A stretch of DNA of 64,000 nucleotides from a virus. Taxonomy: Duplodnaviria > Caudoviricetes. The position numbers were made by a program, and so were the translations under genes. Where the stretch lies: IMG/VR virus record IMGVR_UViG_3300025502_001322, positions 1-64,000 of that record; one strand, given 5' to 3'. Each line of letters opens with the position of its first letter. Within the stretch, counting starts at the first letter, position 1. This document shows positions 39,193 to 55,958 of the stretch, piece after piece. Below the pieces are notes generated by a model. It worked only from the letters and a program-made list of their open reading frames with translations, ran no database searches and was not told the DNA's origin.

Positions 39193-40449
39193 ATGCGACT
39201 CAGTCAGTTACTCAAATTAAAGCAGGATCTTCAAAAACATAATAATAAAATAATTGAAGATGCTATTAATGATGCCATTGCACATGTTAATCAACTAGCA
39301 ATGGTTCCTGCTAGGCTGCCTGAAGCAGACACCTTCCAATCCCTAAAGTCTGAATATAGGAATCTATTACCAAATCTAAGGAAAATAGATGAGCACAAAC
39401 GAACTAAAATTCAAGACTTAGATGAGAAAATATCTGAATGGGGCAAACAGTATTATATAGACAGTTACGACATGTATGAATCGCAACACAAATTAGCTGA
39501 TGTTGCTACTAACAGGGACATACGTAAGTTGTACATGTATGATAATGTCAGAGAAGTTGTTAAAACAAGAATATACACATATGTAGATTGGCGCTACCCT
39601 ACGTTAGAGATAGGTCCTGGAGACGGTGATTTTACACAACACTTAATTGCAGGAGACCCATTATATGTTGTTGACATTCATCAGGAATTCTTAGACAGTA
39701 CCAAAAAACAGTTTAATGAGTTTTACGCTACCAAAAGACTTAGACCTTATCTTATTAAAAATAACTATGACCTAAGTGCCTTACCACAACAACAGATGGG
39801 GTTTGTGTTAGCATGGAACATTTTTAACTATTTTCCACTGGAAGGAATTAAAGAGTATCTTAAAGAAATTTCTAAAGTAATGCGACCAGGTGGAGTCTTG
39901 CTATTCAGTTATAACAACTCTGACAGATGGCAAGGTGCTGAAATGGTAGAAAATGCTTTCATGTGTCATACTCCCAAACACGTACTTTTGCCTTTATTAG
40001 AGAGTTTAGGATTTGAGATTATAACCAGCAAGGATTACGACCCAACAGTAAGTTGGGTAGAGGTGCGTAAGCCTGGTGTTATATCAACCTGTAAAGCTCA
40101 CCAGACGATGGGCTCAGTAATTCAAATTTTAGATCCAGACGAAGATCCAATAAGTGTAGTAGCAAGGGCTCAAGAAGAATTAAGAGTTTCCCTAGATGCA
40201 CAGACACGTTTTGACCTACAGAGACATAAACCAGACTGGTTTGACGCAGTCATACAGTATAGAAAAAAACACAACATAACTATTGAAAAGGCACTAGAGA
40301 TTGTATTTGAACAAGTAGGACTGGATCTCAATAGTGTTAAGGAACATAAAACGCAGACTCTTTTAACAGAAGAACGCAAACCACAGGAACAAATTGATCT
40401 TGAACGACAAGAAAATTTAGACCTGGCAAAAAAAGCCCGAAAAAAATAA
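39193..40449 (+). CDS. Class I SAM-dependent methyltransferase with helical extensions
   Basis: LEIGPGDG, VVDI, NIFNY, PGGVLLF. Confidence 0.75.
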   Translation: MRLSQLLKLKQDLQKHNNKIIEDAINDAIAHVNQLAMVPARLPEADTFQSLKSEYRNLLPNLRKIDEHKRTKIQDLDEKISEWGKQYYIDSYDMYESQHKLADVATNRDIRKLYMYDNVREVVKTRIYTYVDWRYPTLEIGPGDGDFTQHLIAGDPLYVVDIHQEFLDSTKKQFNEFYATKRLRPYLIKNNYDLSALPQQQMGFVLAWNIFNYFPLEGIKEYLKEISKVMRPGGVLLFSYNNSDRWQGAEMVENAFMCHTPKHVLLPLLESLGFEIITSKDYDPTVSWVEVRKPGVISTCKAHQTMGSVIQILDPDEDPISVVARAQEELRVSLDAQTRFDLQRHKPDWFDAVIQYRKKHNITIEKALEIVFEQVGLDLNSVKEHKTQTLLTEERKPQEQIDLERQENLDLAKKARKK

Positions 40450-41269: not shown

Positions 41270-42022
41270 GTGACGTACTTCATTGACAAGATAAGAGTTG
41301 AACATTCTTCTAACTCAGGAACAAGCATACTACATGGATACATTCCTAGTGTAGGACTCACTTATTATAGTGGACAAGGACACACAGTAGGACAATGTTA
41401 CAAGTGTCCTGACCAACCGGTAGTGTATATTAATACACCAAAGTGTGCGAGTAGTTTTATGAAGACTCATTTACTTAATCTAGGGTGGGAAAATAAATTT
41501 TTACAACTAGGAGACTGGGTTGCGGATAATCCCTCTGATATGATGCCAGTCAGCGACGTAGAAAAGTTCATTGTTGTTATGAGAGATCCTTATGATAGAT
41601 GGTTAAGTGGTATAGCAGAATACTTTGGTGAATATTTTAACGATCACGAAGGCATATTTGAATACTTGAATAATCCGTTAACTCTAAAGTTATTAGCACA
41701 AAGAGTATCGTTTGATGATCATACTGAAAGCCAATTATTCTTTTTACAGAATGTACCGTTAGAAAAATGTGTGTTCTTAAGACAGGAACAAGGGCTTAAC
41801 TTTAAAATTTCAGAGTACTTCAGAACTGTTCTAAATATACCTAACAATATATCAAGTGAAAAGCCAGTGCATGTCTCAACAGGCGGTTCCTGGAACGGCA
41901 GAGTAAAACAACATTTAAATAGACTTTTAAGAGAAAACAACGTAGAATACATGAATGTCTTAAAGACTATGGAACAAGATTACGAATTTATGGATAACAT
42001 AGTGCATTTTTATGGCGATTGA
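41270..42022 (+). CDS. Sulfotransferase family 2-like protein
   Basis: YINTPKCASS (PAPS loop), RDPYDRWLSG, DDHT.SQ. Confidence 0.72.
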   Translation: MTYFIDKIRVEHSSNSGTSILHGYIPSVGLTYYSGQGHTVGQCYKCPDQPVVYINTPKCASSFMKTHLLNLGWENKFLQLGDWVADNPSDMMPVSDVEKFIVVMRDPYDRWLSGIAEYFGEYFNDHEGIFEYLNNPLTLKLLAQRVSFDDHTESQLFFLQNVPLEKCVFLRQEQGLNFKISEYFRTVLNIPNNISSEKPVHVSTGGSWNGRVKQHLNRLLRENNVEYMNVLKTMEQDYEFMDNIVHFYGD

Positions 42023-43484
42023 ACAAGACAACTTGTCTGCTAAACAAAAAGACTACGCAGTCTACTTGCCTGCGCTTAGTAGTTTTTATACGGCATTTGT
42101 AGGTAAACAACAAGAGACAGGCAACTATGTAGATCCTGCTAGAGTGCCCAGTAGTTTCCAAAATGGTGTGGAAAGTCTAAACTTCCTTAATGAAAAAGAA
42201 GGAATGTTTACCTACAATCAAGCATTATATAGTGCAGGACATGCAGTGTTAGATGTTGCTAAAGACCATCCTAAAGACTGGATGGTAACACGTCGTGACA
42301 GGAAAAAGAATCTCATCGTAGGTGATTCAGGTGGCTTTCAGATTGCAAAGGGCACCTGGGAAGGCAACTGGCCCGACACTACAGATAAAGCTACAAGTAA
42401 AAAACGTAAACAGGTGTTGACCTGGTTAGACTCAGTTTGTGATTATGGAATGACACTTGATATTCCTACTTGGACTGTGCATGACAAAAAAGCAAGTGCA
42501 AAGACAAATATTAAAACATACCAACAGGCTGTCGACATAACACAATTTAACAACGAGTACTTTATTAAGAACAGAACAGGTGCCTGTAAATTCTTAAATG
42601 TGCTTCAAGGCAGTAACCACACTGATGCTGACCATTGGTATAGTTTAATGAAGAAGTACTGTGACCCAAAACAGTATCCCAATGACCACTTTAACGGTTG
42701 GGGCATGGGAGGTCAGAATATGTGTGATCTGCATCTTATTCTAAAACGTCTTGTAACGCTACACTATGATGGTTTACTACTACCCGGCACACATGACTGG
42801 ATGCATATCTTAGGTACAAGTAGACTAGAATGGGCATGTGTCCTAACAGATACACAACGTGCGGTTAGAGAAAATTACAACCCACAATTTACTCTAAGTT
42901 TTGATTGTGCGAGTCCCTTCTTAGCAACAGCCAACGGACAAGTGTACACTGTAAACGAACATCCAGACCGGGGTAAATGGGTATACAGAATGCGTCCCTG
43001 TGTTGATGACAAGAAGTATCATAACGATACACGACCATTTGTGTCAGCAGTGTTACAGGATGGGTTATTTGATAACTTTACTGACAGCATAGTAACCCAA
43101 GGCATACAGTTGAAAGATGTCTGCATTTATGCCAACGGTGACCTCAATAAAATTGGCAAAGAAGGCAAGACCTCTTGGGATAGTTTTAGTTACGCCATAC
43201 TGATGGCACACAATGTCTGGATGCACATTAAGGCAGTACAAGACTCAAATGTTCTGTATGACCAGGGCAAGATGCCAAGAATGCTAGTAAATGACCTGGG
43301 TGCTGGCACTGCTATTAGGGACATAATTAACGAAGTGTTTGCACAGCCCACTAAAGAAAAGAGCCTTGCAATTATTGAAAAACATAGCACACTCTGGATG
43401 CAAGTAGTTGGAAACAGAGGATTCTCAGGCAAGAGAGCTCTAAACGCTAATACACAGTTTAGCAATTTGTTTGAAATGGCTTGA
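42012..43484 (+). CDS. TGT-fold guanine transglycosylase, DpdA-like
   Basis: GDSGGFQ, MTLD, NVLQG, GWGMGG, HILG, SFDCASP map onto TGT motifs; no C-terminal Zn site. Confidence 0.8.
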   Translation: MAIEQDNLSAKQKDYAVYLPALSSFYTAFVGKQQETGNYVDPARVPSSFQNGVESLNFLNEKEGMFTYNQALYSAGHAVLDVAKDHPKDWMVTRRDRKKNLIVGDSGGFQIAKGTWEGNWPDTTDKATSKKRKQVLTWLDSVCDYGMTLDIPTWTVHDKKASAKTNIKTYQQAVDITQFNNEYFIKNRTGACKFLNVLQGSNHTDADHWYSLMKKYCDPKQYPNDHFNGWGMGGQNMCDLHLILKRLVTLHYDGLLLPGTHDWMHILGTSRLEWACVLTDTQRAVRENYNPQFTLSFDCASPFLATANGQVYTVNEHPDRGKWVYRMRPCVDDKKYHNDTRPFVSAVLQDGLFDNFTDSIVTQGIQLKDVCIYANGDLNKIGKEGKTSWDSFSYAILMAHNVWMHIKAVQDSNVLYDQGKMPRMLVNDLGAGTAIRDIINEVFAQPTKEKSLAIIEKHSTLWMQVVGNRGFSGKRALNANTQFSNLFEMA

Positions 43485-43509
43485 CAGCCTAGTCGAGTAG
43501 CCTTATAAT
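43481..43509 (+). promoter_or_regulatory. Consensus sigma70 promoter
   Basis: TTGACA-17 nt-TATAAT. Confidence 0.8.
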
Positions 43510-43542
43510 AACACAATACTAATCATACGTAAGGTGTAGGTT

Positions 43543-45966
43543 ATGAAGCTACTAGTAATAACTGTTTGTGCAACCCTACTGTCAGCATGTGGCGGAGGTG
43601 GTGGGGGCGGTGGGGGCAATCTTCGCCAAGGAAGTCCTGTTTCTTCTCCCACACAATCATCAGCTGATGTAGACTTTGCAACACCGATTCGAGCTGGCAC
43701 CTACGAGCTGTTTACATCTGGTAGTACCAGTACTCCTGTACAAGACATATTTGTACAGGACTTAAATGCTGACTCTAAAGAAGAAGTTATTATTGCAGGT
43801 AGACAGAGTGCAAGCGCATTTAGTGCTTGTACCGGTGATCTAGACTGTAAAAAAGCCGCATACCAAAACAGTCAAATTAGTATATATGGCTTTAATGCCA
43901 GTAACATACTGGTTAACCAAACAGGTGATTGGTTTACGGGTAATGATCATCAAATAATAGGATCAGAGCCTAGCCTAAGGTTTGGTGACTTTAATGGCGA
44001 CAACAGTATAGACATGGCAGTGGGACATTCTACTGACATGGAACACTTTGGTCCTTTAATCGTATATAAAAACACAGGCGCAAGTAGTTTTAACAGAGAA
44101 GACCATGATATTGGTGACAAGTGGATGCACGATATCGGGGTAGGCGATGTTAACCAAGATGGGTTTGACGATGTTATTGTTGGTGGTTACAGTAACATGG
44201 TTGTTATGTTGGGCGGAGCGGCAAACTTTACACAACTAGACACAACACATAGTGGCAACAGTGGTTTGGCTATAGGAGACTTCTTGGGTGATGGGTCAGT
44301 AACATTTGTGTTTGTTGATTCGACCGGTGATGGCGATGTAGATGACGACACCACGTTAATGAGTTTTAGTCAAACAGGTGTTAATACAGGAGAGTTTACT
44401 AGAATATCAAGACTACCCAGCTCACGTTTTGAACTCCCTTTATATGACGAATTGTTTGATCCCACACAAAACGAACGAGGTCACGACATTAGAGCAGTAC
44501 CGTTTGACTTCAACAACGACGGCTTACTGGATGCTGTGGTTGTCAGCGTTAGCACGGGTCCATTGGATAATAAGAACAGAACAGAAATACAGTTCTTACA
44601 AAATGCAGGAGCAGGCAACTTCATTGACGTAACAGATGACTTACGTGTTGGTTGGGATTTATTTACAAACGGTGACTACAATCCACAGTTGGTTGATGTT
44701 AACGATGACGGCTTAATGGATATTTTATTAAGTGCGCAAAACTTTGGCAATTCTGAATCTACGAGGGTATTACTGCAAACAACTGAAGGCAAGTATGTAC
44801 AAAGTTTTACAGACGTATTTGCTGACTTTGCAACAACAGTACAGGGGTTAGAGACCGAAAAAAATCAGGTACTTAATACTGTTAGATTCGTTACCGGTCC
44901 TGGTGGTGCCAAGTTTCTTGTTACAGCAGTTACACTTAACGATGGCAGTAATGCACTTTACACAACTAAACTAGGCAATGCAGGTGGCACCACAGCACAA
45001 GCCAGCATTGCCCTAATACAACAGGTATGGCCTTACATAACAGACGAACTAGCCGCACAGATCCTAGCTGGTACAGCATTTACAGACTTTGAAGGCTTTG
45101 ATCCTGCTGTGCATGGCTTTGGAATTATTGACATAGAACGTGCATTGTTGCCAGTAGGTGAATTACGCCTGCCGCTAGAAGGCAGGGATGGTACCGTTGC
45201 AATTACAGGCTTACTAAGTGGTGTTAACTTTGGTAATTTAGATAGAGTACAGGCAGTAGACAGTTTAGGTAGAGGATTTGAGATTGGCATTAACAGTATG
45301 CATAATCCTCAGCAACAAGATATCTGGTATGACATTAGTTTTACTAATGACAGTTACACCAGAATGGACTACAACTTTAACACCGTGTATGATAATGGTG
45401 TTGTCAATTACAGTCCAACAGATGAGTCTGGAAACTACACTGTGGGACTTAAGAACATTAAACTACTGAAAGACTGGTACTTACAGGGACAATACACTGT
45501 ATTAAATGCACAAAATCCCTGGTTTAACATGTCTGGTATGTGGGGTACTATAAACAGTTCTACTACATTTGAAACTGTGGCAACACATCTACACAACGAC
45601 TTTACCTTTAACCTTGGTACTATGTATACTAACACAGACTTTGAACCAGGATTGGTTACTGATGTAAGTTCGCTAACTAGTGTGTGGTCAGAAGTAAGTT
45701 GGCGACGTGCAGGTTTCAGAGCCGCAGTGGGCACAATGCCTTATTTGGTAGACGGTGGTATAACATTAAGATTGCCCACAAGTATTGACTTTACTGGCTC
45801 AATACAATATACTGAATTTGACTACAAAATAAGAAACACATTTGCAGAGTATGTTAGTTTAGGTTATAAGAAGCAACTTAACTTTAACACCAGTGTTAGC
45901 GTAGATGGTTACACTAACGGATATGGATTTAGTAAAACACAATTGAAATACAACTATACATTTTAA
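43543..45966 (+). CDS. Lipoprotein with FG-GAP/VCBS repeats and autotransporter-like C-terminal beta domain
   Basis: Lipobox LSAC + Gly9; repeats DLNADSKEE, GDFNGD, GDVNQDG, DFNNDG, DVNDDG; amphipathic strands ending YNYTF. Confidence 0.7.
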   Translation: MKLLVITVCATLLSACGGGGGGGGGNLRQGSPVSSPTQSSADVDFATPIRAGTYELFTSGSTSTPVQDIFVQDLNADSKEEVIIAGRQSASAFSACTGDLDCKKAAYQNSQISIYGFNASNILVNQTGDWFTGNDHQIIGSEPSLRFGDFNGDNSIDMAVGHSTDMEHFGPLIVYKNTGASSFNREDHDIGDKWMHDIGVGDVNQDGFDDVIVGGYSNMVVMLGGAANFTQLDTTHSGNSGLAIGDFLGDGSVTFVFVDSTGDGDVDDDTTLMSFSQTGVNTGEFTRISRLPSSRFELPLYDELFDPTQNERGHDIRAVPFDFNNDGLLDAVVVSVSTGPLDNKNRTEIQFLQNAGAGNFIDVTDDLRVGWDLFTNGDYNPQLVDVNDDGLMDILLSAQNFGNSESTRVLLQTTEGKYVQSFTDVFADFATTVQGLETEKNQVLNTVRFVTGPGGAKFLVTAVTLNDGSNALYTTKLGNAGGTTAQASIALIQQVWPYITDELAAQILAGTAFTDFEGFDPAVHGFGIIDIERALLPVGELRLPLEGRDGTVAITGLLSGVNFGNLDRVQAVDSLGRGFEIGINSMHNPQQQDIWYDISFTNDSYTRMDYNFNTVYDNGVVNYSPTDESGNYTVGLKNIKLLKDWYLQGQYTVLNAQNPWFNMSGMWGTINSSTTFETVATHLHNDFTFNLGTMYTNTDFEPGLVTDVSSLTSVWSEVSWRRAGFRAAVGTMPYLVDGGITLRLPTSIDFTGSIQYTEFDYKIRNTFAEYVSLGYKKQLNFNTSVSVDGYTNGYGFSKTQLKYNYTF

Positions 45967-45974
45967 ATAATATT

Positions 45975-46271
45975 ATGAAAACAATTATCTTAGCAACACT
46001 ACTTACAATATCAACTCCTACATGGGCTAACCAAGCATGTATGGGGTACTCTAGAATGGCAGAAGACATCGCAACAATGCTAGTAGAGGGCATTAACCCC
46101 GACAACATTAACTTTGTCGACCCAGGTAACCCAGTGGACAAAGGTGCACAAAACTCAGGCAATGGGTTGGTTAGGCGCATACAACAAATGTTGGCTAATC
46201 AGAGTACACCAAGAGAGATCAGGGACATTATATTACAAGATTGTTTAAACCCAAACGATGTCAAATCTTAG
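45975..46271 (+). CDS. Secreted hypothetical protein
   Basis: Signal peptide; two Cys. Confidence 0.55.
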   Translation: MKTIILATLLTISTPTWANQACMGYSRMAEDIATMLVEGINPDNINFVDPGNPVDKGAQNSGNGLVRRIQQMLANQSTPREIRDIILQDCLNPNDVKS

Positions 46272-46280
46272 GAGAATAAA

Positions 46281-46454
46281 ATGTTATCTAATAGACTTGA
46301 AGCACTCTATGAAAAACACCAAGAGCTAGAACAAGAACTTTGCTTTCTAGTTAACGGACATCCGCATGTTCAGGAACAGAGAGTAAAAACAATTAAGAAA
46401 CAGAAGTTGCTGATTAAGGACGAACTACAACATCTTAAAACTGTGGATAAATGA
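46281..46454 (+). CDS. DUF465/YdcH-like helical hairpin protein, 57 aa (not in track)
   Basis: GGAG SD; RLEALYEKHQELE...IKKQKLLIKDEL; ATGA overlap with next gene. Confidence 0.65.
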   Translation: MLSNRLEALYEKHQELEQELCFLVNGHPHVQEQRVKTIKKQKLLIKDELQHLKTVDK

Positions 46455-47332
46455 AAAGCATTGTAGTCGGGTTAGGTATAGGCAATCTATATAAGTCTGT
46501 CTTAGAACACATTGGTAATGAAGTAGTAACTGTTGACACTGACAGTGCCAAGAATCCTACTTATACCGACTTATCAAAATCTCTGACATCTCAAGAGCTA
46601 AGTTTAAATGGCAAGTTTGTTACGGGACACGTATGCACACCAAACTTTACACATTATAGTGTAGCAGATACAATAGCACCCTACTGTGATATTGTATTTG
46701 TAGAGAAGCCAGGTGTTAGAACTGCTGACGAATGGCAACAGTTAGTAGATAGGCATCCTGACACAAAGTTTATACTTGTTAAAAATAACATGTGGCGTAG
46801 TAATATCAAAGAACTACGTGAACATGCGCAACAAGCAGAATCTGTTGAGCTTAATTGGATAAACAAAGATAGAGTACCTAGTCCGGGTACTTGGTTTACC
46901 ACGATGGACCTCGCATTTGGTGGTGTTAGTAGAGACCTTATGCCACATCTACTAAGTTTATATATGGCATTTGATGACGATTGGCGTCAAGCAGAACCAA
47001 CACAAGCACTAGCACACAGACGTTATGAGTTGTCAGAATTATCCAACACTGATTACGGAGAAGTAAATAATAATGGCGTTTACAATGTAGACGACTTATG
47101 TAAATTTTCTATTAACAAATATAAACTAACCGCCGATTGGCGTGACACACAATCTGATAAACGTAATATAATTTTCTCTAACCCGGACTACACGTTTAAA
47201 CTAGGATTATGCCCAGAACTAGCATACGAGAATATGATACGAGACTGTATCTATAATCGTAACACAGAAGGTTTCTGGCAAGATCAACTGGAAAAAGACT
47301 TGTGGATACACAAACAAATTCAAAACTTATAA
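46451..47332 (+). CDS. Gfo/Idh/MocA family oxidoreductase
   Basis: VVGLGIG, VCTPNFTH, VEKP, GGVSRDLMPH. Confidence 0.85.
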   Translation: MKSIVVGLGIGNLYKSVLEHIGNEVVTVDTDSAKNPTYTDLSKSLTSQELSLNGKFVTGHVCTPNFTHYSVADTIAPYCDIVFVEKPGVRTADEWQQLVDRHPDTKFILVKNNMWRSNIKELREHAQQAESVELNWINKDRVPSPGTWFTTMDLAFGGVSRDLMPHLLSLYMAFDDDWRQAEPTQALAHRRYELSELSNTDYGEVNNNGVYNVDDLCKFSINKYKLTADWRDTQSDKRNIIFSNPDYTFKLGLCPELAYENMIRDCIYNRNTEGFWQDQLEKDLWIHKQIQNL

Positions 47333-48225
47333 TGGATGTCAAACTATTAGTTACAGACGGTAACGGTACATTTGCCGAAACGGTCTGGTCCAAGCCTGAA
47401 ATCACCGATACTGAGATAGAAGTTAAAGCCATTATGACTGGCGTGTGTCGTAGTGATATAGACATGATGACTGGTCAGTTTGGTCCGTTGCCGATACACA
47501 TGAGCGGGCACGAAGGCTTAGGGCAAGTTACTAAGATTGGTAAGCACGTTACAGACGTTAATGTTGGTGACATTGTCGCTACTCGTGGTGAACCTGCTTA
47601 TGCAGATTACTATAACGTAAAGCGCAACGAGTATGTGATTGTGCCAGAAGCAAGTCCGGACTACATATTAGAGCCCGTTGCATGCGGTATAAATGTTGTC
47701 GAACAGAACTTACAACAGATACAGTTACGCCAAGATGAGGGTTCAAGACTGCTTATCAAGGGCAGTGGCTTCCTAGCATATTGTGCATATACCACGTTAC
47801 AACAACGTAATGTAGACTTTGATATAGATGTTGTGGGCTCAAGTAACCAACATCTATGGGGCGACAAGTTACAGACTGCTCCTACTGGAGAGTACGATAT
47901 TATCATCGACCTTAAGGGTGACACTAAAACATTTACAGACCCCATATATAAAGAGAATGCGCTAATTATCGTAGGCTCCAACATGCAGGTTAATATGAAC
48001 TTAAACAACTTGTTATGGAAAGCAGTAACAGTAACATTCCCAAGTCCACGTAACCCCAACTTTATCAAATGTATGAAATTAGCAGAGGTATGGATATCAA
48101 AAGGTGTGTTAGAAGTTGACTCATTTTGGACAACCAGTTATAATAGACATACAGACTGGCAAAAAGCATTCGAAGATGGGGTCAACAGACCAGTAGGATA
48201 CAGCAGAGGATACATAGAATGGTAA
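47302..48225 (+). CDS. Zinc-dependent medium-chain dehydrogenase (no structural-Zn loop)
   Basis: GVCRSD, GHEGLG, VGDIV, EPVAC. Confidence 0.85.
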   Translation: MDTQTNSKLIMDVKLLVTDGNGTFAETVWSKPEITDTEIEVKAIMTGVCRSDIDMMTGQFGPLPIHMSGHEGLGQVTKIGKHVTDVNVGDIVATRGEPAYADYYNVKRNEYVIVPEASPDYILEPVACGINVVEQNLQQIQLRQDEGSRLLIKGSGFLAYCAYTTLQQRNVDFDIDVVGSSNQHLWGDKLQTAPTGEYDIIIDLKGDTKTFTDPIYKENALIIVGSNMQVNMNLNNLLWKAVTVTFPSPRNPNFIKCMKLAEVWISKGVLEVDSFWTTSYNRHTDWQKAFEDGVNRPVGYSRGYIEW

Positions 48226-48587
48226 AAGTTTTTTTACTTAGTGTTTTAGTTGTTTGTTGCAGTATCGCTAATGCACAAGAACTGCCAAATGCAGATCAGG
48301 AAACATTGGAAGATCCGGAAACATTGCATAAGCCTGTAGAGTGCTATTCTGCAGAGAGTATTGTTAAATTAACAGAAGAGAAGGGATTAATACTATTTTG
48401 GCAAGGTCCAAACTTAAAAGATAATTACCCAGATAACACAATAGTAGTAATGTTAGACCCCAACGCTAACGGCTGGGTGGTATTTGAAATGACTTTACAA
48501 GTCGCATGTATACTTGGCTACGGTCAAAGTTTTTGGTTGTTTGATCAACTGTATATGTTCTTAGACCCTTTACAGGAAACTGACTAA
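48219..48587 (+). CDS. Secreted hypothetical protein, paralog of 57..431
   Basis: Signal peptide; shared Cys/Trp pattern. Confidence 0.65.
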   Translation: MVKVFLLSVLVVCCSIANAQELPNADQETLEDPETLHKPVECYSAESIVKLTEEKGLILFWQGPNLKDNYPDNTIVVMLDPNANGWVVFEMTLQVACILGYGQSFWLFDQLYMFLDPLQETD

Positions 48588-49021
48588 TGGAAGAACAACG
48601 AGCAATGGCAGTGGCAGAGAAACTACTCAAGCAAGCAAATAATGCAAGCAAGATGATATGGGTAACTTTTCGTAAGGAAGGTATTCATTGCTATCCTGGT
48701 GCAGACACAGATCCTAAACTAGCAACAGGTGACTGGGACGATGTTAGTTTTTTAGGTGTACCACACAGACACATATTTCACTTTAAAGTCTGGATAGAAA
48801 TATTCCATGACGATAGAGACATAGAATTTATACAGTTTAAGCGTTGGCTACAACGTTTATATGAAAATAGCGTATTAGAGTTAGACCACAAGTCATGTGA
48901 AATGATATCTAATGATCTATTCTTGCAAATTGCAACTCGTTATCCAAGACGTAACATCTGGATTGACGTTAGTGAAGATGGCGAAAACGGAAGTTTCATA
49001 AAGTACCACAAGGAGAATTAA
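48587..49021 (+). CDS. QueD-like T-fold protein with LxxxHRHxF motif (DpdL candidate)
   Basis: FLGVPHRHIFHF, DRDIEF, SCEM, VSEDGENG C-terminus. Confidence 0.65.
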   Translation: MEEQRAMAVAEKLLKQANNASKMIWVTFRKEGIHCYPGADTDPKLATGDWDDVSFLGVPHRHIFHFKVWIEIFHDDRDIEFIQFKRWLQRLYENSVLELDHKSCEMISNDLFLQIATRYPRRNIWIDVSEDGENGSFIKYHKEN

Positions 49022-49022
49022 G

Positions 49023-49235
49023 ATGGCTAAGCCAAAAACAGGCATGACGCCCAAAGTAACACGTATTTTTGAAGATTTAGAGGCATACGCAGATTACTGC
49101 AGGATGCACTATTGCAAGTTTGACGAAGCAGATATGTATCGCAGAGGTACTAATTGGGAACGTATGCAAAACAAACTACAACGTGGGAATAGAAACGACA
49201 ACGGCAACTACAACTATAAGCAGAGGCGTCGTTGA
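49023..49235 (+). CDS. Small basic hypothetical protein
   Basis: 70 aa, AGGAG SD. Confidence 0.6.
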   Translation: MAKPKTGMTPKVTRIFEDLEAYADYCRMHYCKFDEADMYRRGTNWERMQNKLQRGNRNDNGNYNYKQRRR

Positions 49236-50320
49236 TATATCTAGTAGACCTAGAAGGTTTGGATACACGTTATACTAAACAATGGAAACACCATGTGCCA
49301 GATCTCCTACGGAGAGAACTGACGGAGGAAGTCACAGTAATTAGTGGTGGTGATACTCCACAGGCAACAACACCAGGTGCGTTCTTAAACTTTGGTGGTA
49401 CCAATGTGTACAAGTCTAAACAACTAGAACAGATAGGTGAATTATTTTGTGCTGGTAAAGTTAAAGACGGTGACTACTTCCTTTATACCGATGCTTGGAA
49501 CCCTACTGTTATACAGTTAAAGTATATGGCAGAGTTGTTGGGTGTCAACATAAAAATAGGTGGTATGTGGCATGCTGGTAGTTATGATCCAGAAGACTTT
49601 TTAGGAAGACTTATTGGTGACAAGCCTTGGGTCAGACATGCTGAAAAAAGTATGTACGAAGTGTTTGATCATAACTTCTTTGCTAGTGTGTTTCATATCA
49701 AAATGTTTCACAACACACTCAATTATCCTGAGCGTATTATATGGGCTGATGGAATGTTTAGTGATGGCAAGATAACTCGCACTGGTTGGCCCATGGAGTA
49801 TATGGTAGAAACTCTTGCGCCATACAGTAATTTAGAAAAACGAGACATAATACTTTTCCCACATCGTATTGCTCCAGAAAAACAACCAGAGATATTTAAA
49901 GACCTGCAAAAGTCCCTGCCACAATACAAGTTTGTGATGTGTCAAGAACAGCAACTTAGCAAAGACGAGTACCATACTTTATTAGGGTCGGCTAAAATTG
50001 TGTTTAGTGCTAACTTGCAAGAAACACTTGGTATAAGTTGGTATGAAGGCGCATTAGTTAATGCTGTTCCCATGGTGCCTGGCAGGCTAAGTTACAGTGA
50101 AATGGCTGTAGACAAATTTAAGTATCCAAGCGAATGGACTACTAACTGGGACAGTTACCAGAAACACAAGACTGATCTATGTGATGCCATTACTATAGTT
50201 ATGGAAAACCACAGTGACTATTTGCCAGCACTGGAACAACAATTAACGAAACTTAAAGACGAGTACTTTGGATGCAGTAAATTAATTTCAACTATTAGAG
50301 ACAGGAGCAAGCATGCGTAA
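49232..50320 (+). CDS. GT-B fold glycosyltransferase
   Basis: FPHRIAPEKQP and LQETLGISWYEG donor-binding motifs. Confidence 0.78.
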   Translation: MIYLVDLEGLDTRYTKQWKHHVPDLLRRELTEEVTVISGGDTPQATTPGAFLNFGGTNVYKSKQLEQIGELFCAGKVKDGDYFLYTDAWNPTVIQLKYMAELLGVNIKIGGMWHAGSYDPEDFLGRLIGDKPWVRHAEKSMYEVFDHNFFASVFHIKMFHNTLNYPERIIWADGMFSDGKITRTGWPMEYMVETLAPYSNLEKRDIILFPHRIAPEKQPEIFKDLQKSLPQYKFVMCQEQQLSKDEYHTLLGSAKIVFSANLQETLGISWYEGALVNAVPMVPGRLSYSEMAVDKFKYPSEWTTNWDSYQKHKTDLCDAITIVMENHSDYLPALEQQLTKLKDEYFGCSKLISTIRDRSKHA

Positions 50321-50879
50321 GAAATATTATTCATGGCGGGACGTTGAAACCATATGTACAGAGCTAGTTATAGACATGTATAAATCTAACTACAAGCCGG
50401 ACATCGTAGTTGGTCTCACACGTGGTGGTAATATCCCTGCTACTATTATTAGCAATATGTTAGATGTTCAATGCGAGTCACTAAAAATTAAACTACGAGA
50501 CAACAAGCCTGGTGAGGAGAACGAAACTAATTGTCAACTTGCACGACAAGCATTTGGGTATGTGTCGGAAACTGAACAAGTAGTATTGAAAACACGATGG
50601 GATATCTCACAACGAAAAAACATTCTTATTGTGGACGACATTAATGATTCTGGTGCTACATTTAATTACCTTAAACATCAGTGGCAACAATGTTGTTACC
50701 CTGAGGAATCCAGTTGGGGGACTGTCTGGGAACACAATGTTAGGTTTGCAGTACTAACGGAAAACTTGTCTAGTAATTTCCAACACGTCAGCTATCACGG
50801 CGACGAAGTAAATAAAATGGAAGAAGATATTTGGTTAGTTTACCCTTGGGAAAACGTAGGTCGATATGGAAACGTATGA
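50313..50879 (+). CDS. Type I purine phosphoribosyltransferase (Gpt/Hpt-like)
   Basis: VGLTRGG, ILIVDDINDSGAT PRPP loop, WLVYPWE. Confidence 0.88.
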   Translation: MRKKYYSWRDVETICTELVIDMYKSNYKPDIVVGLTRGGNIPATIISNMLDVQCESLKIKLRDNKPGEENETNCQLARQAFGYVSETEQVVLKTRWDISQRKNILIVDDINDSGATFNYLKHQWQQCCYPEESSWGTVWEHNVRFAVLTENLSSNFQHVSYHGDEVNKMEEDIWLVYPWENVGRYGNV

Positions 50880-51486
50880 TGAGGACGTCAGTCCCTGGCA
50901 ACCTATACGTGATTTCGAACAGGAACTAGCCGCATACACTGGCGCACCTTACGCAGTAACAACTGATAGATGCACCCACGCAATAGAAATAGCACTTAGA
51001 TTACGACCACCCACAGAACCTGTTAGATTTACAGCATTTACCTATGTGAGTGTTGTGATGACCATGCACAAACTCGACATAGCTTACGAGTTGATAGACG
51101 AGCAATGGCGTGGCAAATATCAATTTCATAACACTAATATATGGGACTGTGCTAGGTTCTTAGAGCGTGACATGTACGAACCAGGACAAACCCAATGTTT
51201 AAGTTTTGGTAGGACCAAACCACTACCATTGGGCTTTGGTGGTGCTATATTAACTGACGACAAAGAGCTATACGAACGTGCAAGCCGCATGCGTTACGAT
51301 GGCAGAGACTTGTTTAGTCACCAAAAGTGGTCAGAACAAACAGACTGGGAGCCAGGCTTCCATTACTATATGACTCCAGAACAGTGCGAAGTAGCAGGCT
51401 TCCGTCTGGTCAACGAACTCTTAACAATTCAAGAAGATCACCATTACAACTACCCAGACTGTAGACAACTTAATATTAAACATTGA
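50866..51486 (+). CDS. DegT/DnrJ/EryC1/StrS-like PLP aminotransferase, N-terminal domain only
   Basis: FEQELAAY, CTHAI, DCA, SFGRTK (PLP lysine), GGAILTDD; only 206 aa. Confidence 0.75.
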   Translation: METYDEDVSPWQPIRDFEQELAAYTGAPYAVTTDRCTHAIEIALRLRPPTEPVRFTAFTYVSVVMTMHKLDIAYELIDEQWRGKYQFHNTNIWDCARFLERDMYEPGQTQCLSFGRTKPLPLGFGGAILTDDKELYERASRMRYDGRDLFSHQKWSEQTDWEPGFHYYMTPEQCEVAGFRLVNELLTIQEDHHYNYPDCRQLNIKH

Positions 51487-51511
51487 CTTGATTATCTAAA
51501 TATCGTATAAT
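51483..51511 (+). promoter_or_regulatory. sigma70-type promoter for folE
   Basis: TTGACT-17 nt-TATAAT. Confidence 0.75.
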
Positions 51512-51554
51512 ACAACATTAAAGAGACTCCCCCTCTTGTTAACTCGGAGATACA

Positions 51555-52235
51555 ATGAAACTATCAACAGCAGAAGTAATTAGACAACGTCTTAAAGTCG
51601 CAGGTGTTAGATTCCATTCTAACGACAATATCAGTGAATATATTAAAGAAGGTGAACTAGACAGTCTTCAAACAGAAGTACAAGATGCAATGCAGAATGT
51701 ATTAGATGCACTCGTTATTGACACAGACAATGACCACAACACACAGGAAACTGCTAAACGTGTTGCTAAGATGTTTGTACATGAAACTTTCAATGGTAGG
51801 TATGTGCCTCGTCCAAGAATAACAAGTTTTCCCAACATGGGTTACAAGAGTTTGTATGTAAGCGGTCCCATTAGCGTTAGGTCAACTTGCGCACATCACT
51901 TTCAGAATATTGTAGGTAAGTGTTGGATTGGTGTACTGCCAGAAGATGAAGTTATCGGACTAAGCAAGTTTAATCGTCTTGTGCATCACATTGCAGAGCG
52001 TCCTCAAATACAGGAAGAGATGACCACACAGATTGCAGAAGAATTAATTAAGTATGCAAAGACTCCTAACATTGCTGTTATAGTTAAAGCAGAACATCAC
52101 TGTATGACTCATAGAGGTGTTAAAGAACATGAGTCAGATATGACTACTGCTATTATGCGTGGTGCGTTTGATGATCATGCTCCTCTTAAGAAAGAGTTTT
52201 ACGATATCGTTATGAACATGAAGGGTCATAGATAA
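51555..52235 (+). CDS. folE: GTP cyclohydrolase I
   Basis: ET..RVAKM, STCAHH, GLSK, RPQIQE, HHCM..RG. Confidence 0.95.
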   Translation: MKLSTAEVIRQRLKVAGVRFHSNDNISEYIKEGELDSLQTEVQDAMQNVLDALVIDTDNDHNTQETAKRVAKMFVHETFNGRYVPRPRITSFPNMGYKSLYVSGPISVRSTCAHHFQNIVGKCWIGVLPEDEVIGLSKFNRLVHHIAERPQIQEEMTTQIAEELIKYAKTPNIAVIVKAEHHCMTHRGVKEHESDMTTAIMRGAFDDHAPLKKEFYDIVMNMKGHR

Positions 52236-52250
52236 CCTCTATTACTGTAG

Positions 52251-53036
52251 ATGTATAAACGAGCAATCATAACACTAAGTCATATTGAACGTGTTACAGA
52301 CACCATAGACGTAGAGTTTAAATTAAACAACCACAGTTATGCACAGAAGTGGGCAGAGTGTATAAAAACTATTGAAGGTCCCCCCAACGACTTTGGCTTC
52401 CCTAGACGATTAGAAGAAGATCCTGACATATATAAAGCGAGGATTAGCACACATATAGAATCCATTCCTGAATTAGACTTTAGTGTGATTAATCAAGACT
52501 CAGTCAATGCAATACACAGGTACATAGAAGACAATCACAAACAAGCAGACAAACTATTAACACTACACAACGACATACACTATTTGGAGAGTTTATGGGA
52601 AGGGCCAAGAGAAGTAGTGTTTAAAAAGGTACAGTGGGTTCCGCCAGGTAAGAGAATTAAAATGGAGCCAGATGATTACAAGTGTTATACAACTGAACCT
52701 TGTGAGAATTACCTAGAAGCAGACTTTAGTCATGTAGGCAGAACACCACACAATACTTGGTACTACAAAGATGACACAAGTTTGTCAACAAGTTGTCGTA
52801 TACAGGAAGACGTTACTAGTGGTTGTATGTGGTGGTTTACAGACAACAGTCATATATACGAAAACAGACACGGGTTTGTGGAATGGTTTTATCAACACCA
52901 AGCATACTTCCTTCGTAAATATAATATAAATTGGCCACATGATCCACGTGTGTGTTATGGTAGAGTCATACTTGCAACTGCTAAAGAGTTGCCAGGCCCA
53001 GAGTGGGACTTTGTTCAACAATTAAGAGTAGAATGA
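52251..53036 (+). CDS. Hypothetical protein
   Basis: 261-aa ORF between folE and queE. Confidence 0.55.
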   Translation: MYKRAIITLSHIERVTDTIDVEFKLNNHSYAQKWAECIKTIEGPPNDFGFPRRLEEDPDIYKARISTHIESIPELDFSVINQDSVNAIHRYIEDNHKQADKLLTLHNDIHYLESLWEGPREVVFKKVQWVPPGKRIKMEPDDYKCYTTEPCENYLEADFSHVGRTPHNTWYYKDDTSLSTSCRIQEDVTSGCMWWFTDNSHIYENRHGFVEWFYQHQAYFLRKYNINWPHDPRVCYGRVILATAKELPGPEWDFVQQLRVE

Positions 53037-54373
53037 AATATCTAATACGTTATAACCCTATAGCAGATTGTGATCCAGAATACCAAGAGCGTATCAAGGA
53101 CATTGCACAGTTTCATCAACAGTTGCCGTTCGATACTGACTTTCAGGTATTAGAAAGTTCTGATTTAGACCAAGCATTTGCAGAAGTATCGGCAGATTCT
53201 GAATGGGTCGTTGTTGTTAGTCTTGGGCACTGTAGTCAAGACAGAAACATGTACGACAAAGCCATTGCCGTTTGCAAAGAAAATAATGTAAAATTAATGT
53301 GCCACCTACTGGACTTTAAAGATCAGTACATACATTTCCATCCGCAGTTTTTTGTCATACACTACCCAAGTTGGATTAAGGCGGGGAGACCTCGCTTTGG
53401 CTACGATGGCGAGGAGCAACAGTTTACAGGACTCGATTATATTCCCAGTAAAGACACGTATCACGATGATTACACACCTGTTAGCCTTAGACCTGGGTTG
53501 CGACGGCGAACATTTCAAGTTCATGAAATGCAAACTGGTGCTTGGGTAATTAAAAACTTCTTAGACAAGGGGTTTAGTATTATTAACGTAACACAAAAAC
53601 TAAGAGATAATACGTTTCACTTATATCCAGACATAGAGTCCGACGAGTTTTATAATTTTTTAAAGACAGGTGAATATACTGGGTCACAGTCAAGTCAGGA
53701 GTGGTATGTTGGGCTTATTAAACATCTAGCACGTAACGTAAAACACCAGTTCTATCCTCTTAACACAGAACCTGTTGGTAATGACAAGATCGATTTTAGT
53801 ATAAACAACTTCATATGTGTAGCAAGCGGCTTAAAACCTTGGTTACTACCAATGTATTATGCTAACGAAACAGACCCTTTGAGTATTAATTTTTGCGATT
53901 TTTCAGATGCCGCGGTGCAATTTCAACAGCATTTAAGCACTTGGTCGGGCGAAGTTGGAACCTTTAATGCAACTGTACAGCAATTTCTTAAAGAACACCC
54001 TGAGTTTGAGAGTTGTGATCCTCCAGGCGCATACGACACCGAGCTTGTTCGACAGTTAACTAATATTAACATAGCCCCTAAGGTTTTTCAGGCTGTCTGG
54101 AGTCAGATACCCAAGGATCAGCCATGCAGTTTATTAAATTTGTATACCGAAGAAGGACAGGATCAGATAATTAACATAGTTGCCAACAATGATACCACAT
54201 ACGTGTGGTTAAGCAATGCATTCTATATGGAGTATGCATTAGTTACTGTTGGTAAAAAGAAGGTATACGAATATAGACAACGTCTTATAGATGGGCTAAC
54301 CGCAACTGGTAAGCGTTTTGTGTTAGACTTGATGGATCCTTGGCAACAAGGACCGGTAACCTTCAATGACTAA
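53003..54373 (+). CDS. Hypothetical protein
   Basis: 456-aa ORF; WLSNAF motif. Confidence 0.55.
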   Translation: MGLCSTIKSRMKYLIRYNPIADCDPEYQERIKDIAQFHQQLPFDTDFQVLESSDLDQAFAEVSADSEWVVVVSLGHCSQDRNMYDKAIAVCKENNVKLMCHLLDFKDQYIHFHPQFFVIHYPSWIKAGRPRFGYDGEEQQFTGLDYIPSKDTYHDDYTPVSLRPGLRRRTFQVHEMQTGAWVIKNFLDKGFSIINVTQKLRDNTFHLYPDIESDEFYNFLKTGEYTGSQSSQEWYVGLIKHLARNVKHQFYPLNTEPVGNDKIDFSINNFICVASGLKPWLLPMYYANETDPLSINFCDFSDAAVQFQQHLSTWSGEVGTFNATVQQFLKEHPEFESCDPPGAYDTELVRQLTNINIAPKVFQAVWSQIPKDQPCSLLNLYTEEGQDQIINIVANNDTTYVWLSNAFYMEYALVTVGKKKVYEYRQRLIDGLTATGKRFVLDLMDPWQQGPVTFND

Positions 54374-55048
54374 TTGTCGAAAACGTTCAGCAACTCTATA
54401 ATCGTCTGGGTAACCATGTATAATCATATGATATCTATCATGTTCACTGTCATTAAAAACAGCATGTTCAAAGTTGTTGGCAAAAAGAAATATACTACCC
54501 ATTTGATTGAATGGTACAGTACCTTGGTCTTTAACTACCAATTTGCAGCCGTCAGGATTCCATAAACTTATGTTTACTGCATTTAATCCGTATGTGTTGC
54601 CGTCAGTATGTGGTAAAATATATCCGCCCGGCTTAACCTTCATAAAACGAACACGGTGATAAACATCATATGGAAAGTGTTGTGCTAACCACAGTTTCGT
54701 ATAAGGAGCATCTATGTCTGTCCAGTCATATGGTACATTTCTATTTGACAAATCCTTGTATTCCGTATATAATTCATAATGATCCGTATAACTTTGACTA
54801 ATACCATGAACACAAACACTGGACCAACCGCTACTGTCGTTATCCCTATGTTCGTGATAAGTAGCACGTTCGGCTTCTGCATGCAACACCGGCCATTGTG
54901 CATGAATATAAAGAGGAATATAGGGCAGGTTACTTTCTGTCACAATCCATTCGTAGTCAGCATCTCTAGGAAGTTGACTAACGTCAGGACTGCAATCAGA
55001 ATTACTAGCAATAAATGTTTCGAGTTTGTCCACAAAATTATTTACCAT
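54323..55048 (-). CDS. Aspartyl/asparaginyl beta-hydroxylase-like 2OG-Fe(II) oxygenase
   Basis: RVRFM...PGG.I.PHTD, EHAV.N....R.HMI. Confidence 0.75.
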   Translation of the reverse strand: MVNNFVDKLETFIASNSDCSPDVSQLPRDADYEWIVTESNLPYIPLYIHAQWPVLHAEAERATYHEHRDNDSSGWSSVCVHGISQSYTDHYELYTEYKDLSNRNVPYDWTDIDAPYTKLWLAQHFPYDVYHRVRFMKVKPGGYILPHTDGNTYGLNAVNISLWNPDGCKLVVKDQGTVPFNQMGSIFLFANNFEHAVFNDSEHDRYHMIIHGYPDDYRVAERFRQLVIEGYRSLLPRIHQV

Positions 55049-55082
55049 AATACAAGTAGTCTAGATATAAGCAGAGGTTAAA

Positions 55083-55958
55083 ATGAAATTTAAAGTAAGT
55101 GAAATATTTTACAGTCTACAGGGAGAGGGGAGATTTGTAGGAGTACCCAGTGTATTCTTAAGACTGTTTGGGTGTAACTTCGAATGTCCAGGTTTCGGTT
55201 TGCCTAAAGGTAAGAAGACTGAAGAAGTCGACAACATAATTAAACTGGTAGAACAAGATCCCGACAAGTACAAACGACTAGAAGACCTTCCACTTGTTAC
55301 AACAGGCTGTGATAGTTATGCAAGTTGGCATCCAAAGTTTAAAAAGTATTCGCCAACTTATGACATAGACACACTTGTTGGTAAATTAACCGACTTACTC
55401 CCTAATAACACATGGCGACAAGATAATGGATCAGACATACACCTAGTTGTTACTGGTGGAGAACCATTATTAGGCTGGCAACGTATATACTCGCACTTAC
55501 TAGAACATGACAAAATGAGTAACTTGCAGAATATAACGTTTGAGACAAACGGCACACAAAAGTTACATGATGACTTTAAGGCATTCTTTCACACATGGAA
55601 GAATGATTATCATAACTACCACAACTTAACATTTAGTGTTAGTCCTAAACTAAGTGCTAGTGGTGAAGCGTGGGACGATGCTATCATGCCAGAAGTAGTT
55701 GCTGAGTATAACTGGATAGGCAACACGTATTTGAAGTTTGTAGTAGAGAATGATGAACACATGGCTGAAGTAGATGAAGCTGTTAATGCATATCGTAAAG
55801 CAGGAGTAAACGGTAACGTTTATATTATGCCTGTTGGTGGGGTAGCAGAAGCATATAATCAAAATAACAAACGGGTAGCCGAATATGCACTAAGTAAAGG
55901 TTACAGATACAGTCCCAGATTGCACGTAGATATCTGGGGCAACAGTTGGAGTACTTAA
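55083..55958 (+). CDS. queE: 7-carboxy-7-deazaguanine synthase (radical SAM)
   Basis: EIFYSLQGEG, FLRLFGCNFEC...GCDS, TGGEP, ETNGT, VSPK, RLH..IWG. Confidence 0.88.
   Translation: MKFKVSEIFYSLQGEGRFVGVPSVFLRLFGCNFECPGFGLPKGKKTEEVDNIIKLVEQDPDKYKRLEDLPLVTTGCDSYASWHPKFKKYSPTYDIDTLVGKLTDLLPNNTWRQDNGSDIHLVVTGGEPLLGWQRIYSHLLEHDKMSNLQNITFETNGTQKLHDDFKAFFHTWKNDYHNYHNLTFSVSPKLSASGEAWDDAIMPEVVAEYNWIGNTYLKFVVENDEHMAEVDEAVNAYRKAGVNGNVYIMPVGGVAEAYNQNNKRVAEYALSKGYRYSPRLHVDIWGNSWST

Follow-up and report, generated by a model that had tools for sequence, protein, structure and literature searches.

Modification of DNA with 7-deazaguanines is a major phage defence against restriction. Eight 7-deazaguanine DNA bases are known, none of which carries a sugar. 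Phage phiST encodes FolE, QueD, QueE, DpdL and DpdA without QueC, and its deoxyguanosine (dG) is completely replaced by 2'-deoxy-7-deazaguanine (dDG). In phages with dDG, DpdL is the proposed decarboxylase of 7-carboxy-7-deazaguanine (CDG) (PMC10516641), and an LxxxHRHxF signature in place of CxxxHGH separates it from QueD (Cui et al. 2023, PMC10516641). The DNA of Pseudomonas jumbo phage PA5oct withstands G-containing restriction enzymes, apparently in GA/GG contexts (PMC12191111); we found no report on the chemical identity of its modified G in the literature examined. Here we describe a DpdL-containing gene cluster in a stretch of 64,000 nucleotides (the window), the first 64 kb of the 289,070-bp IMG/VR virus record IMGVR_UViG_3300025502_001322, whose completeness is estimated at 80%. 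Our evidence consists of protein folds, motifs, gene content and gene linkage, and all chemistry below is deduced from these. We propose that the cluster specifies a DpdL-type, QueC-less 7-deazaguanine DNA modification system whose pathway includes a sugar step, a reading that we hold tentatively, at a confidence somewhat short of even.

Deazaguanine genes without QueC

A sequence-only reading of the window had described, between 42012 and 55958, a 7-deazaguanine DNA modification cluster interleaved with sugar-tailoring enzymes, and had taken it as a candidate for a new, possibly glycosylated, hypermodified base. Every gene that it named is present at the position it gave, on the + strand. Those that concern us first are listed here, with open reading frames (ORFs) referred to below by their start positions.

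42012..43484, + strand: DpdA-like transglycosylase of the tRNA-guanine transglycosylase (TGT) superfamily, 490 amino acids (aa) (structure-based)
48587..49021, + strand: DpdL, a QueD paralogue and proposed 7-carboxy-7-deazaguanine decarboxylase (LxxxHRHxF signature; phrog_17812, 6e-33)
49232..50320, + strand: GT-B fold, GT4-like glycosyltransferase, 362 aa (structure; E264-x7-E272)
50313..50879, + strand: type I purine (6-oxopurine-like) phosphoribosyltransferase (PRTase) (PF00156, 3.6e-13; NCBIfam xanthine PRT, 1.5e-9)
51555..52235, + strand: GTP cyclohydrolase I, FolE (PF01227, 4e-45; phrog_2197, 3e-52)
55083..55958, + strand: QueE, 7-carboxy-7-deazaguanine synthase, a radical S-adenosylmethionine (SAM) enzyme (phrog_2076, 2.5e-55)

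FolE and QueE are clear assignments, the latter with 45% identity to QueE of cyanophage BUCT-ZZ01. A profile search of the whole 289-kb record found no QueC, QueF or Pfam TGT, and the sole PTPS/QueD of the genome lies outside the window, at 273072-273581 of the record. The search of the rest of the genome for queC, queD and queF that the sequence-only reading had proposed thus yielded a QueD alone, and the module without QueC that it had described stands.

ORF 48587, which the same reading had called QueD-like, is indeed a QueD paralogue, and the vague label can be replaced. Its residues 56-64 read LGVPHRHIF, an exact fit to LxxxHRHxF; it is 54% identical to DpdL of Acidovorax phage ACP17 and 30% identical to CGPG_00067 of phiST; and its gene context here is FolE, QueD and QueE together with a DpdA-like protein, without QueC. 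From this signature and setting we identify ORF 48587 as DpdL, a predicted CDG decarboxylase. The expectation of a deazaguanine other than preQ0 is supported by the DpdL gene set, but not as something new: since that gene set was already tied to dDG in 2023 (PMC10516641), the base would be of a known kind.

The record belongs to a PA5oct-related jumbo phage, and the module sits in its replication module. Between 36.5 and 58.3 kb lies a replication block, with synteny to PA5oct, to Sinorhizobium phage Phosso and to numerous contigs of uncultured jumbo phages. Its shared gene order is PolB, a clamp-like protein (40510), ORF 42012, DpdL, ORF 49232, PRTase, QueE, ORF 55946 and a 5'-3' exonuclease. 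When the whole cluster was compared with 50,697 phage records by Megablast, nothing matched.

Core enzymes and their conservation in relatives

ORF 42012 matched no Pfam or PHROG model. The gathering score of PF01702 was not reached (in the family, only 2/55 members reach E 0.04), and neither phmmer nor the family profile found a TGT among PDB sequences; structure comparison alone did. The AlphaFold (AF2) model, with a predicted local distance difference test (pLDDT) score of 92.6, matched TGTs in Foldseek with E ~1e-7 and probability 1.0, and VIA-align superposed it on bacterial, archaeal and eukaryotic TGTs with Z 18-19.4 and a root-mean-square deviation (rmsd) of 4.3-4.9 Å over ~300 aligned residues. 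Judged by this model, ORF 42012 has the TGT-type (beta/alpha)8 barrel fold. Across 55 homologues (26-86% identity), residues S74, D105, S106, G108, D150, P152, H265, G268 and D298 are invariant, and lie in the motifs GDSGGFQ (D105), LDxP (D150), HxLG and SFDC (D298). By motif matching, we take D105, D150 and D298 to correspond to the general acid/base, base-binding and nucleophile Asp of TGT (Z. mobilis D102, Asp156 and D280). The canonical TGT zinc site, CxCxxC...H, is not conserved in the family, whose C-terminal part keeps only C371 (69%) and H400 (85%).

The family is large, with at least ~8,000 90%-identity clusters matched and 919 50%-identity clusters at E<=1e-3. As to placement with DpdA or with tRNA TGT, profile comparison by hhalign links it to the DpdA proteins of ACP17 (probability 96.3%), Xanthomonas phage X1 (94.9%) and Burkholderia phage BCSR5 (94.2%), whereas the link to DpdA3 of phiST is weak (53.7%). 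BLASTP of ACP17 DpdA against phiST DpdA3 was itself not significant. Structural neighbours in BFVD include a Vibrio phage nt-1 protein (3e-9), a phiST protein (1e-3) and phage proteins annotated 'queuine tRNA-ribosyltransferase'. The TGT/DpdA-like transglycosylase of the sequence-only reading is thus borne out by the fold and the invariant Asp, and its placement among DpdA proteins holds for the ACP17, X1 and BCSR5 type. We regard ORF 42012 as a divergent DpdA-like transglycosylase, predicted from its place beside the synthesis genes, and from the restriction-resistant DNA of PA5oct, to exchange G in DNA for a 7-deazaguanine, and its family is possibly a DpdA subfamily of its own.

ORF 49232 likewise matched nothing in Pfam (including Glycos_transf_1 and Glyco_trans_4), PHROG or NCBIfam, and phmmer against PDB found nothing. 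Its AF2 model (pLDDT 78) aligns over residues 1-362 with SPS, PglA, BshA and PimB' at Z 20-22 and rmsd 3.5-3.7 Å, with 304-318 residues aligned; Z is 18.4 to tetrahydrobiopterin (BH4) glucosyltransferase and 15.8 to T4 alpha-GT. Its E-x7-E motif is E264-TLGISWY-E272, with both Glu invariant in 35 homologues, some of which carry the JGI label 'glycosyltransferase involved in cell wall biosynthesis'. tRNA-queuosine mannosyltransferases are among the Swiss-Prot structural neighbours, not above the general GT4 background. The model identifies ORF 49232 as a GT-B/GT4-like glycosyltransferase, whose predicted donor and acceptor rest on gene linkage. Hydroxymethyl-pyrimidine was considered as its target and set aside: the genome's one thymidylate-synthase-family gene, with a very strong canonical score (341 bits), is taken as ThyA.

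In the PRTase, the phosphoribosyl pyrophosphate (PRPP) motif (hydrophobic-DD-x-x-D-S/T-G-x-T) is present as ILIVDDINDSGAT. Its closest solved proteins are the purine PRTases GpT-2 and HGPRT (6-oxopurine PRTases; 7e-8 to 7e-7).

To place these genes in relatives, all window proteins were searched against 80 IMG/VR loci with an ORF 42012 homologue (57-91% identity). Complete modules, spanning ORF 42012 to QueE, comprised 26 distinct architectures; the upstream set, spanning PolB to ORF 42012, comprised 51. DpdL, the glycosyltransferase, the PRTase and FolE each occur in 26/26 complete modules. The glycosyltransferase and the PRTase are thus fixed module members in the relatives examined, which is a new point.

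The glycosyltransferase (GT) also adjoins DpdL and/or DpdA in at least five further cultured phage lineages. The order is DpdA-like-GT-DpdL in PA5oct, DpdA-GT-DpdL-QueE in ACP17 and GT-DpdA-DpdL-QueE in X1; BCSR5 has GT-DpdA with DpdL 3 kb upstream, and in Phosso only DpdL and GT adjoin, in that order. DpdL modules without a glycosyltransferase exist in phiST, BUCT-ZZ01, RHph_I1_18 and Ahp1, which argues that the enzyme is an add-on, acquired or retained repeatedly, and not required for dDG.

Between and beside the core genes lie three candidate sugar-tailoring genes and one small ORF.

46451..47332, + strand: Gfo/Idh/MocA-like oxidoreductase, lineage-specific accessory (PF01408, 1.8e-4, below the Pfam cut-off)
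47302..48225, + strand: Zn-dependent medium-chain dehydrogenase/reductase (MDR)/alcohol dehydrogenase (ADH)-like protein, accessory (ADH_N, 1.9e-11)
49023..49235, + strand: small conserved ORF of 70 aa, function unknown, between DpdL and the glycosyltransferase (no family match; 24/26 complete modules)
50866..51486, + strand: short DegT/WbpE-like pyridoxal phosphate (PLP) aminotransferase homologue, 206 aa, accessory (PF01041, 3e-18)

The best solved matches of the Gfo-like protein are DgpA (2e-4) and WbpB (0.05). The ADH-like gene probably starts near 47332; its homologues have 298-299 aa. Alignment of the DegT-like protein with solved sugar aminotransferases extends across the SFxxxK lysine (SFGRTK). 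Compared with the full enzyme (~370 aa), the protein is short of the C-terminal domain and of part of the large domain, and its 206-aa length is conserved in relatives. Co-occurrence of the sugar genes with the deazaguanine genes in relatives, on which the sequence-only reading had staked its case, holds for the glycosyltransferase but not for the others, which are not core. The Gfo and ADH genes were found in 7/26 complete modules, always together and always between the TGT-like gene and DpdL; the DegT-like gene was found in 10/26, often directly 3' of the glycosyltransferase; and 9/26 had neither. The variable slots of relatives hold genes for NAD epimerase/dehydratase (27 loci), cytidylyltransferase-like proteins (17), phosphomannomutase (PMM; 17) and UDPG/GDP-Man dehydrogenase (8), as well as SAM synthetase, radical SAM enzymes, HIT and an IMP dehydrogenase (IMPDH)/GMP reductase (GMPR)-family gene.

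The last of these lies in the module region of five relatives (L067:12050-13165 among them). Its product could raise the supply of GTP or, by analogy with tubercidin and toyocamycin biosynthesis, have a deazapurine nucleotide as its substrate. In 70/80 metagenomic relatives, an uncharacterised 204-aa protein is encoded between the TGT-like gene and DpdL (L039:8279-8893), and in ACP17 just upstream of DpdA (L006:7320-7718); this genome, PA5oct and Phosso lack it, and it may be another optional module member. Relatives at ~85% identity have an extra DAHP_synth_1 (KdsA-like) gene between the 40510 and 41270 homologues (L010:8475-9284, L011:7722-8531, L012:690-1499) that the window lacks, a further sign of rapid sugar-gene turnover at this site.

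Proposed pathway and alternatives

In the pathway that we propose, FolE, QueD (at 273 kb) and QueE would convert GTP to CDG, DpdL would take off the carboxyl group to give 7-deazaguanine, and the TGT-fold ORF 42012 would swap guanine in phage DNA for 7-deazaguanine after replication. These core steps, from GTP through CDG and 7-deazaguanine to base exchange in DNA, follow established pathway knowledge and the 2023 model. The restriction resistance of PA5oct at G supports a DNA target and motif-limited, post-replicative exchange (PMC12191111). The purine PRTase may return the released guanine to GMP and hence to GTP; for a universal PRTase, guanine recycling is most simply the role. The GT4-like glycosyltransferase would add a sugar to deazaguanine, as the free base or in DNA, for which the 2-amino group has a chemical precedent as attachment site. 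The Gfo-like/ADH pair and the short DegT-like protein of this lineage may then modify the sugar, perhaps into a 3-amino sugar.

A glycosylated deazaguanine in DNA is plausible from gene linkage, at a confidence well short of even, and our literature searches found no paper reporting such a base. Equally tentative is the form of the deazapurine, in which the sugar might sit on the 2-amino group, by analogy with huimycin, or on C7 after decarboxylation. With the same reserve, the sugar may vary by lineage: a 3-amino sugar here, and elsewhere one derived from mannose or a uronate. The way in which sugar-nucleotide genes turn over from one lineage to the next recalls how glycosylated hydroxymethylcytosine diversified in an arms race.

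Several observations weigh against the proposed pathway. The QueD of the record has CNVIHGY in place of CxxxHGH, with Tyr at the position of one predicted zinc-binding His. No dDG was obtained on expression in E. coli, and the decarboxylase activity of DpdL is unproven (PMC10516641). Genes for a lipoprotein and secreted proteins are interleaved with the module, so the region also gathers unrelated cargo. A hydroxyl group to which an O-linked sugar could be attached is missing from dDG. In phiST, plain dDG is made in the absence of this glycosyltransferase, and dDG thus does not depend on the enzyme. ORF 49232 is acidic (isoelectric point 5.8), which is unexpected for a DNA-binding enzyme. Another large sugar/glycosyltransferase locus presumably lies elsewhere in the genome (unchecked), and sugar genes would then not be confined to the module.

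Most of these points equally favour an alternative in which the DNA carries plain dDG, as in phiST. That phage has dDG with FolE, QueD, QueE, DpdL and DpdA and with no glycosyltransferase, and dDG offers no obvious sugar acceptor. In our phage the acidic glycosyltransferase and the sugar enzymes would then serve virion or host glycans, or a small molecule, and be kept in the same early-gene block. The unrelated secreted-protein genes in that block, the other sugar loci (unchecked) and the patchy distribution of the dehydrogenase and aminotransferase genes fit such an arrangement. The glycosyltransferase is nevertheless in 26/26 modules; it stays beside DpdA and/or DpdL in unrelated phage families, despite differing gene orders and DpdA types; and it is found in the stretch from PolB to the exonuclease rather than with structural genes. 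We consider plain dDG unlikely, though a serious competitor.

A nucleotide-level route, as for tubercidin, is improbable in our view. The PRTase would join CDG or 7-deazaguanine to PRPP, DpdL would decarboxylate the base or the nucleotide, and 7-deaza-GMP would be converted to a deoxynucleoside triphosphate and incorporated by the adjacent PolB, leaving the TGT-like protein secondary. This is a real rival because the tubercidin PRTase can take CDG, and the tubercidin cluster follows the same logic (no QueC, CDG and a PRTase, a decarboxylase, a GMP reductase). The PRTase is in 26/26 modules and also adjoins QueE in BUCT-ZZ01, IMPDH/GMPR-family and HIT genes occur in some relatives, and MazG adjoins DpdL in phiST. 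Yet a TGT-fold protein with intact catalytic residues is universal in the module, and our PRTase is closest to guanine/xanthine salvage enzymes. The clusters of ACP17, X1 and BCSR5 keep DpdA-GT-DpdL with no PRTase listed or detected by tblastn, and the PA5oct restriction pattern suggests motif-limited, not total, replacement (PMC12191111).

That the TGT-like enzyme acts on phage or host tRNA, as its tRNA-guanine transglycosylase fold would allow, or that a pterin glycoside is the product of the FolE, PTPS-like and glycosyltransferase genes, as the BH4 glucosyltransferase among the model's neighbours (Z 18.4) might suggest, is very improbable: QueE and DpdL indicate deazaguanine and not pterins, the replication block houses the module, the DNA of PA5oct itself resists restriction at G (PMC12191111), and the BH4 glucosyltransferase match, no better than dozens of other GT4 enzymes, was rejected as non-specific.

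Glycosylated deazaguanine in DNA, if real, would be a new class of DNA hypermodification, matching in a purine the glucosyl-hydroxymethylcytosine of T-even phages, with consequences for type IV restriction, END nucleases, the sequencing of such phages and enzymatic DNA labelling. If the sugar is not on the base, PRTase-based guanine recycling and a new DpdA family would still extend the known pathway. The module in which the glycosyltransferase and PRTase are fixed is very abundant: the TGT-like protein and the glycosyltransferase, each used as a query, matched at least ~8,000 protein clusters, largely from aquatic metagenomes. The module is also present in the therapy-relevant phage PA5oct with its 'modified G', and the glycosylated-deazaguanine hypothesis is directly testable in cultured relatives.

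Surrounding genes and comparison with known systems

The remaining features of the region are as follows.

39193..40449, + strand: SAM-dependent methyltransferase between PolB and the module (Methyltransf_12/25/23/11, 1e-8 to 1e-9)
41270..42022, + strand: sulfotransferase-like protein, a weak assignment, overlapping the start of 42012 (PF03567, 3.3e-4, below cut-off)
43543..46271, + strand: FG-GAP lipoprotein (807 aa, lipobox) and small secreted protein (FG-GAP_3, 1.9e-10; signal peptide and lipobox visible in the sequence)
start 52251, + strand: gene of unknown function, ORF 52251 (no family match; clade-specific)
53003-54373, + strand: gene of unknown function, ORF 53003 (no family match; clade-specific)
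54323-55048, - strand: AspH-like 2-oxoglutarate (2OG) oxygenase (PF05118, 1e-10; clade-specific)

Of the 51 upstream architectures, 30 have the methyltransferase gene and 18 the sulfotransferase-like gene, which is adjacent in 15. FG-GAP, ORF 52251, ORF 53003 and the AspH-like gene occur in 0/26 complete modules and are confined to relatives of >=85% identity in the TGT-like or glycosyltransferase protein. The sequence-only reading had remarked neither on the minus-strand AspH-like gene nor on the interleaved genes for the lipoprotein and two small secreted proteins. The FG-GAP lipoprotein (43543-45966) has a lipobox followed by a Gly run, and the small secreted proteins (45975-46271 and 48219-48587) are encoded inside the DNA modification block; ORF 48219 has a paralogue at 69-407 of the window (32% identity). 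The FG-GAP lipoprotein and the small secreted protein at 43543..46271 are probably unrelated cargo. Atlas look-ups of ORFs 52251 and 53003 gave viral hypothetical clusters alone, those of 53003 being viral-only. A weaker related Atlas match of ORF 53003 (score 0.84) is a 688-aa cluster carrying PF05118, the Asp/Asn hydroxylase domain of its convergent AspH-like neighbour, which hints from sequence at a functional pair. The + strand ORF at 54779-55081 is probably spurious. A homing-endonuclease gene splits PolB in PA5oct (L001:5605-10831); here PolB is one gene of 887 aa (36506-39169).

In a consensus scan, sigma-70-like sites were enriched (78 against 56 +/- 6 in shuffles). TTGACA-17-TATAAT is matched perfectly (12/12) three times within 19.5 kb: before FG-GAP (43481-43509), inside the AspH-like gene upstream of QueE (54745-54773) and before the exonuclease (57236-57264). 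Sites matching at 11/12 precede ORF 48219 (48116) and FolE (51483). This pattern suggests that strong host-type early promoters split the cluster into several host-RNA-polymerase units, one of which would take in 48219-DpdL-49023-GT-PRT-DegT, whose genes overlap or abut end to start.

Among known systems, the module has parts in common with several. With phiST (PMC10516641) it shares FolE, QueD and QueE without QueC, a DpdL with LxxxHRHxF, and a TGT-superfamily DpdA adjoining the polymerase gene. The phiST DpdA, however, has 259 aa against 490 aa here, where the protein belongs to another, larger family, and phiST has no detectable homologue of the glycosyltransferase or PRTase and a MazG gene instead. 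PA5oct (Wroclawvirus) and Phosso share syntenic genes for PolB, clamp-like protein, TGT-like protein, glycosyltransferase, DpdL, PRTase and QueE through to the exonuclease, at 37-57% identity, whereas neither has the Gfo, ADH, DegT-like, FG-GAP or AspH-like genes. In ACP17, X1 and BCSR5, the genes for DpdA, glycosyltransferase, DpdL and QueE are contiguous or nearly so, with 24-37% identity to our glycosyltransferase and 43-54% to our DpdL, but these phages belong to different families, their DpdA is of the nt-1/KVP40 type and their gene order differs.

Outside phage DNA modification, the GT4-type HuiG of huimycin/dapiramicin biosynthesis, encoded beside folE/queD/queE homologues, glycosylates the 2-amino group of a 7-deazaguanine core. 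It resembles ORF 49232, by description, as a GT-B enzyme encoded with deazaguanine genes, whereas its actinomycete pathway makes a small-molecule antibiotic, uses preQ0 (QueC is present) and has no base-inserting transglycosylase. Tubercidin biosynthesis shares the absence of QueC, the CDG branch point, a PRTase and a decarboxylation step; it differs in a UbiD-type decarboxylase in place of the T-fold DpdL, a free-nucleoside product and the lack of a TGT-like gene. T-even hydroxymethylcytosine glycosylation and the eukaryotic tRNA-queuosine mannosyltransferase (QTMAN) likewise use GT-B enzymes to put a sugar onto a modified base in nucleic acid. In T-even phages the sugar also differs between lineages, and QTMAN acts on a 7-deazaguanine derivative and is among the structural neighbours of the ORF 49232 model. 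Their acceptors, in contrast, have hydroxyl groups, and in structure T4 alpha-GT is further off (Z 15.8).

For the failure of ACP17 DpdL and DpdA to work in E. coli, the 2023 authors suggested 'other unknown enzymes' (PMC10516641), among which the glycosyltransferase may be one. New relative to the known dDG system are the constant presence of a glycosyltransferase and a PRTase, the putative tailoring of a sugar in particular lineages and a DpdA family undetected by Pfam.

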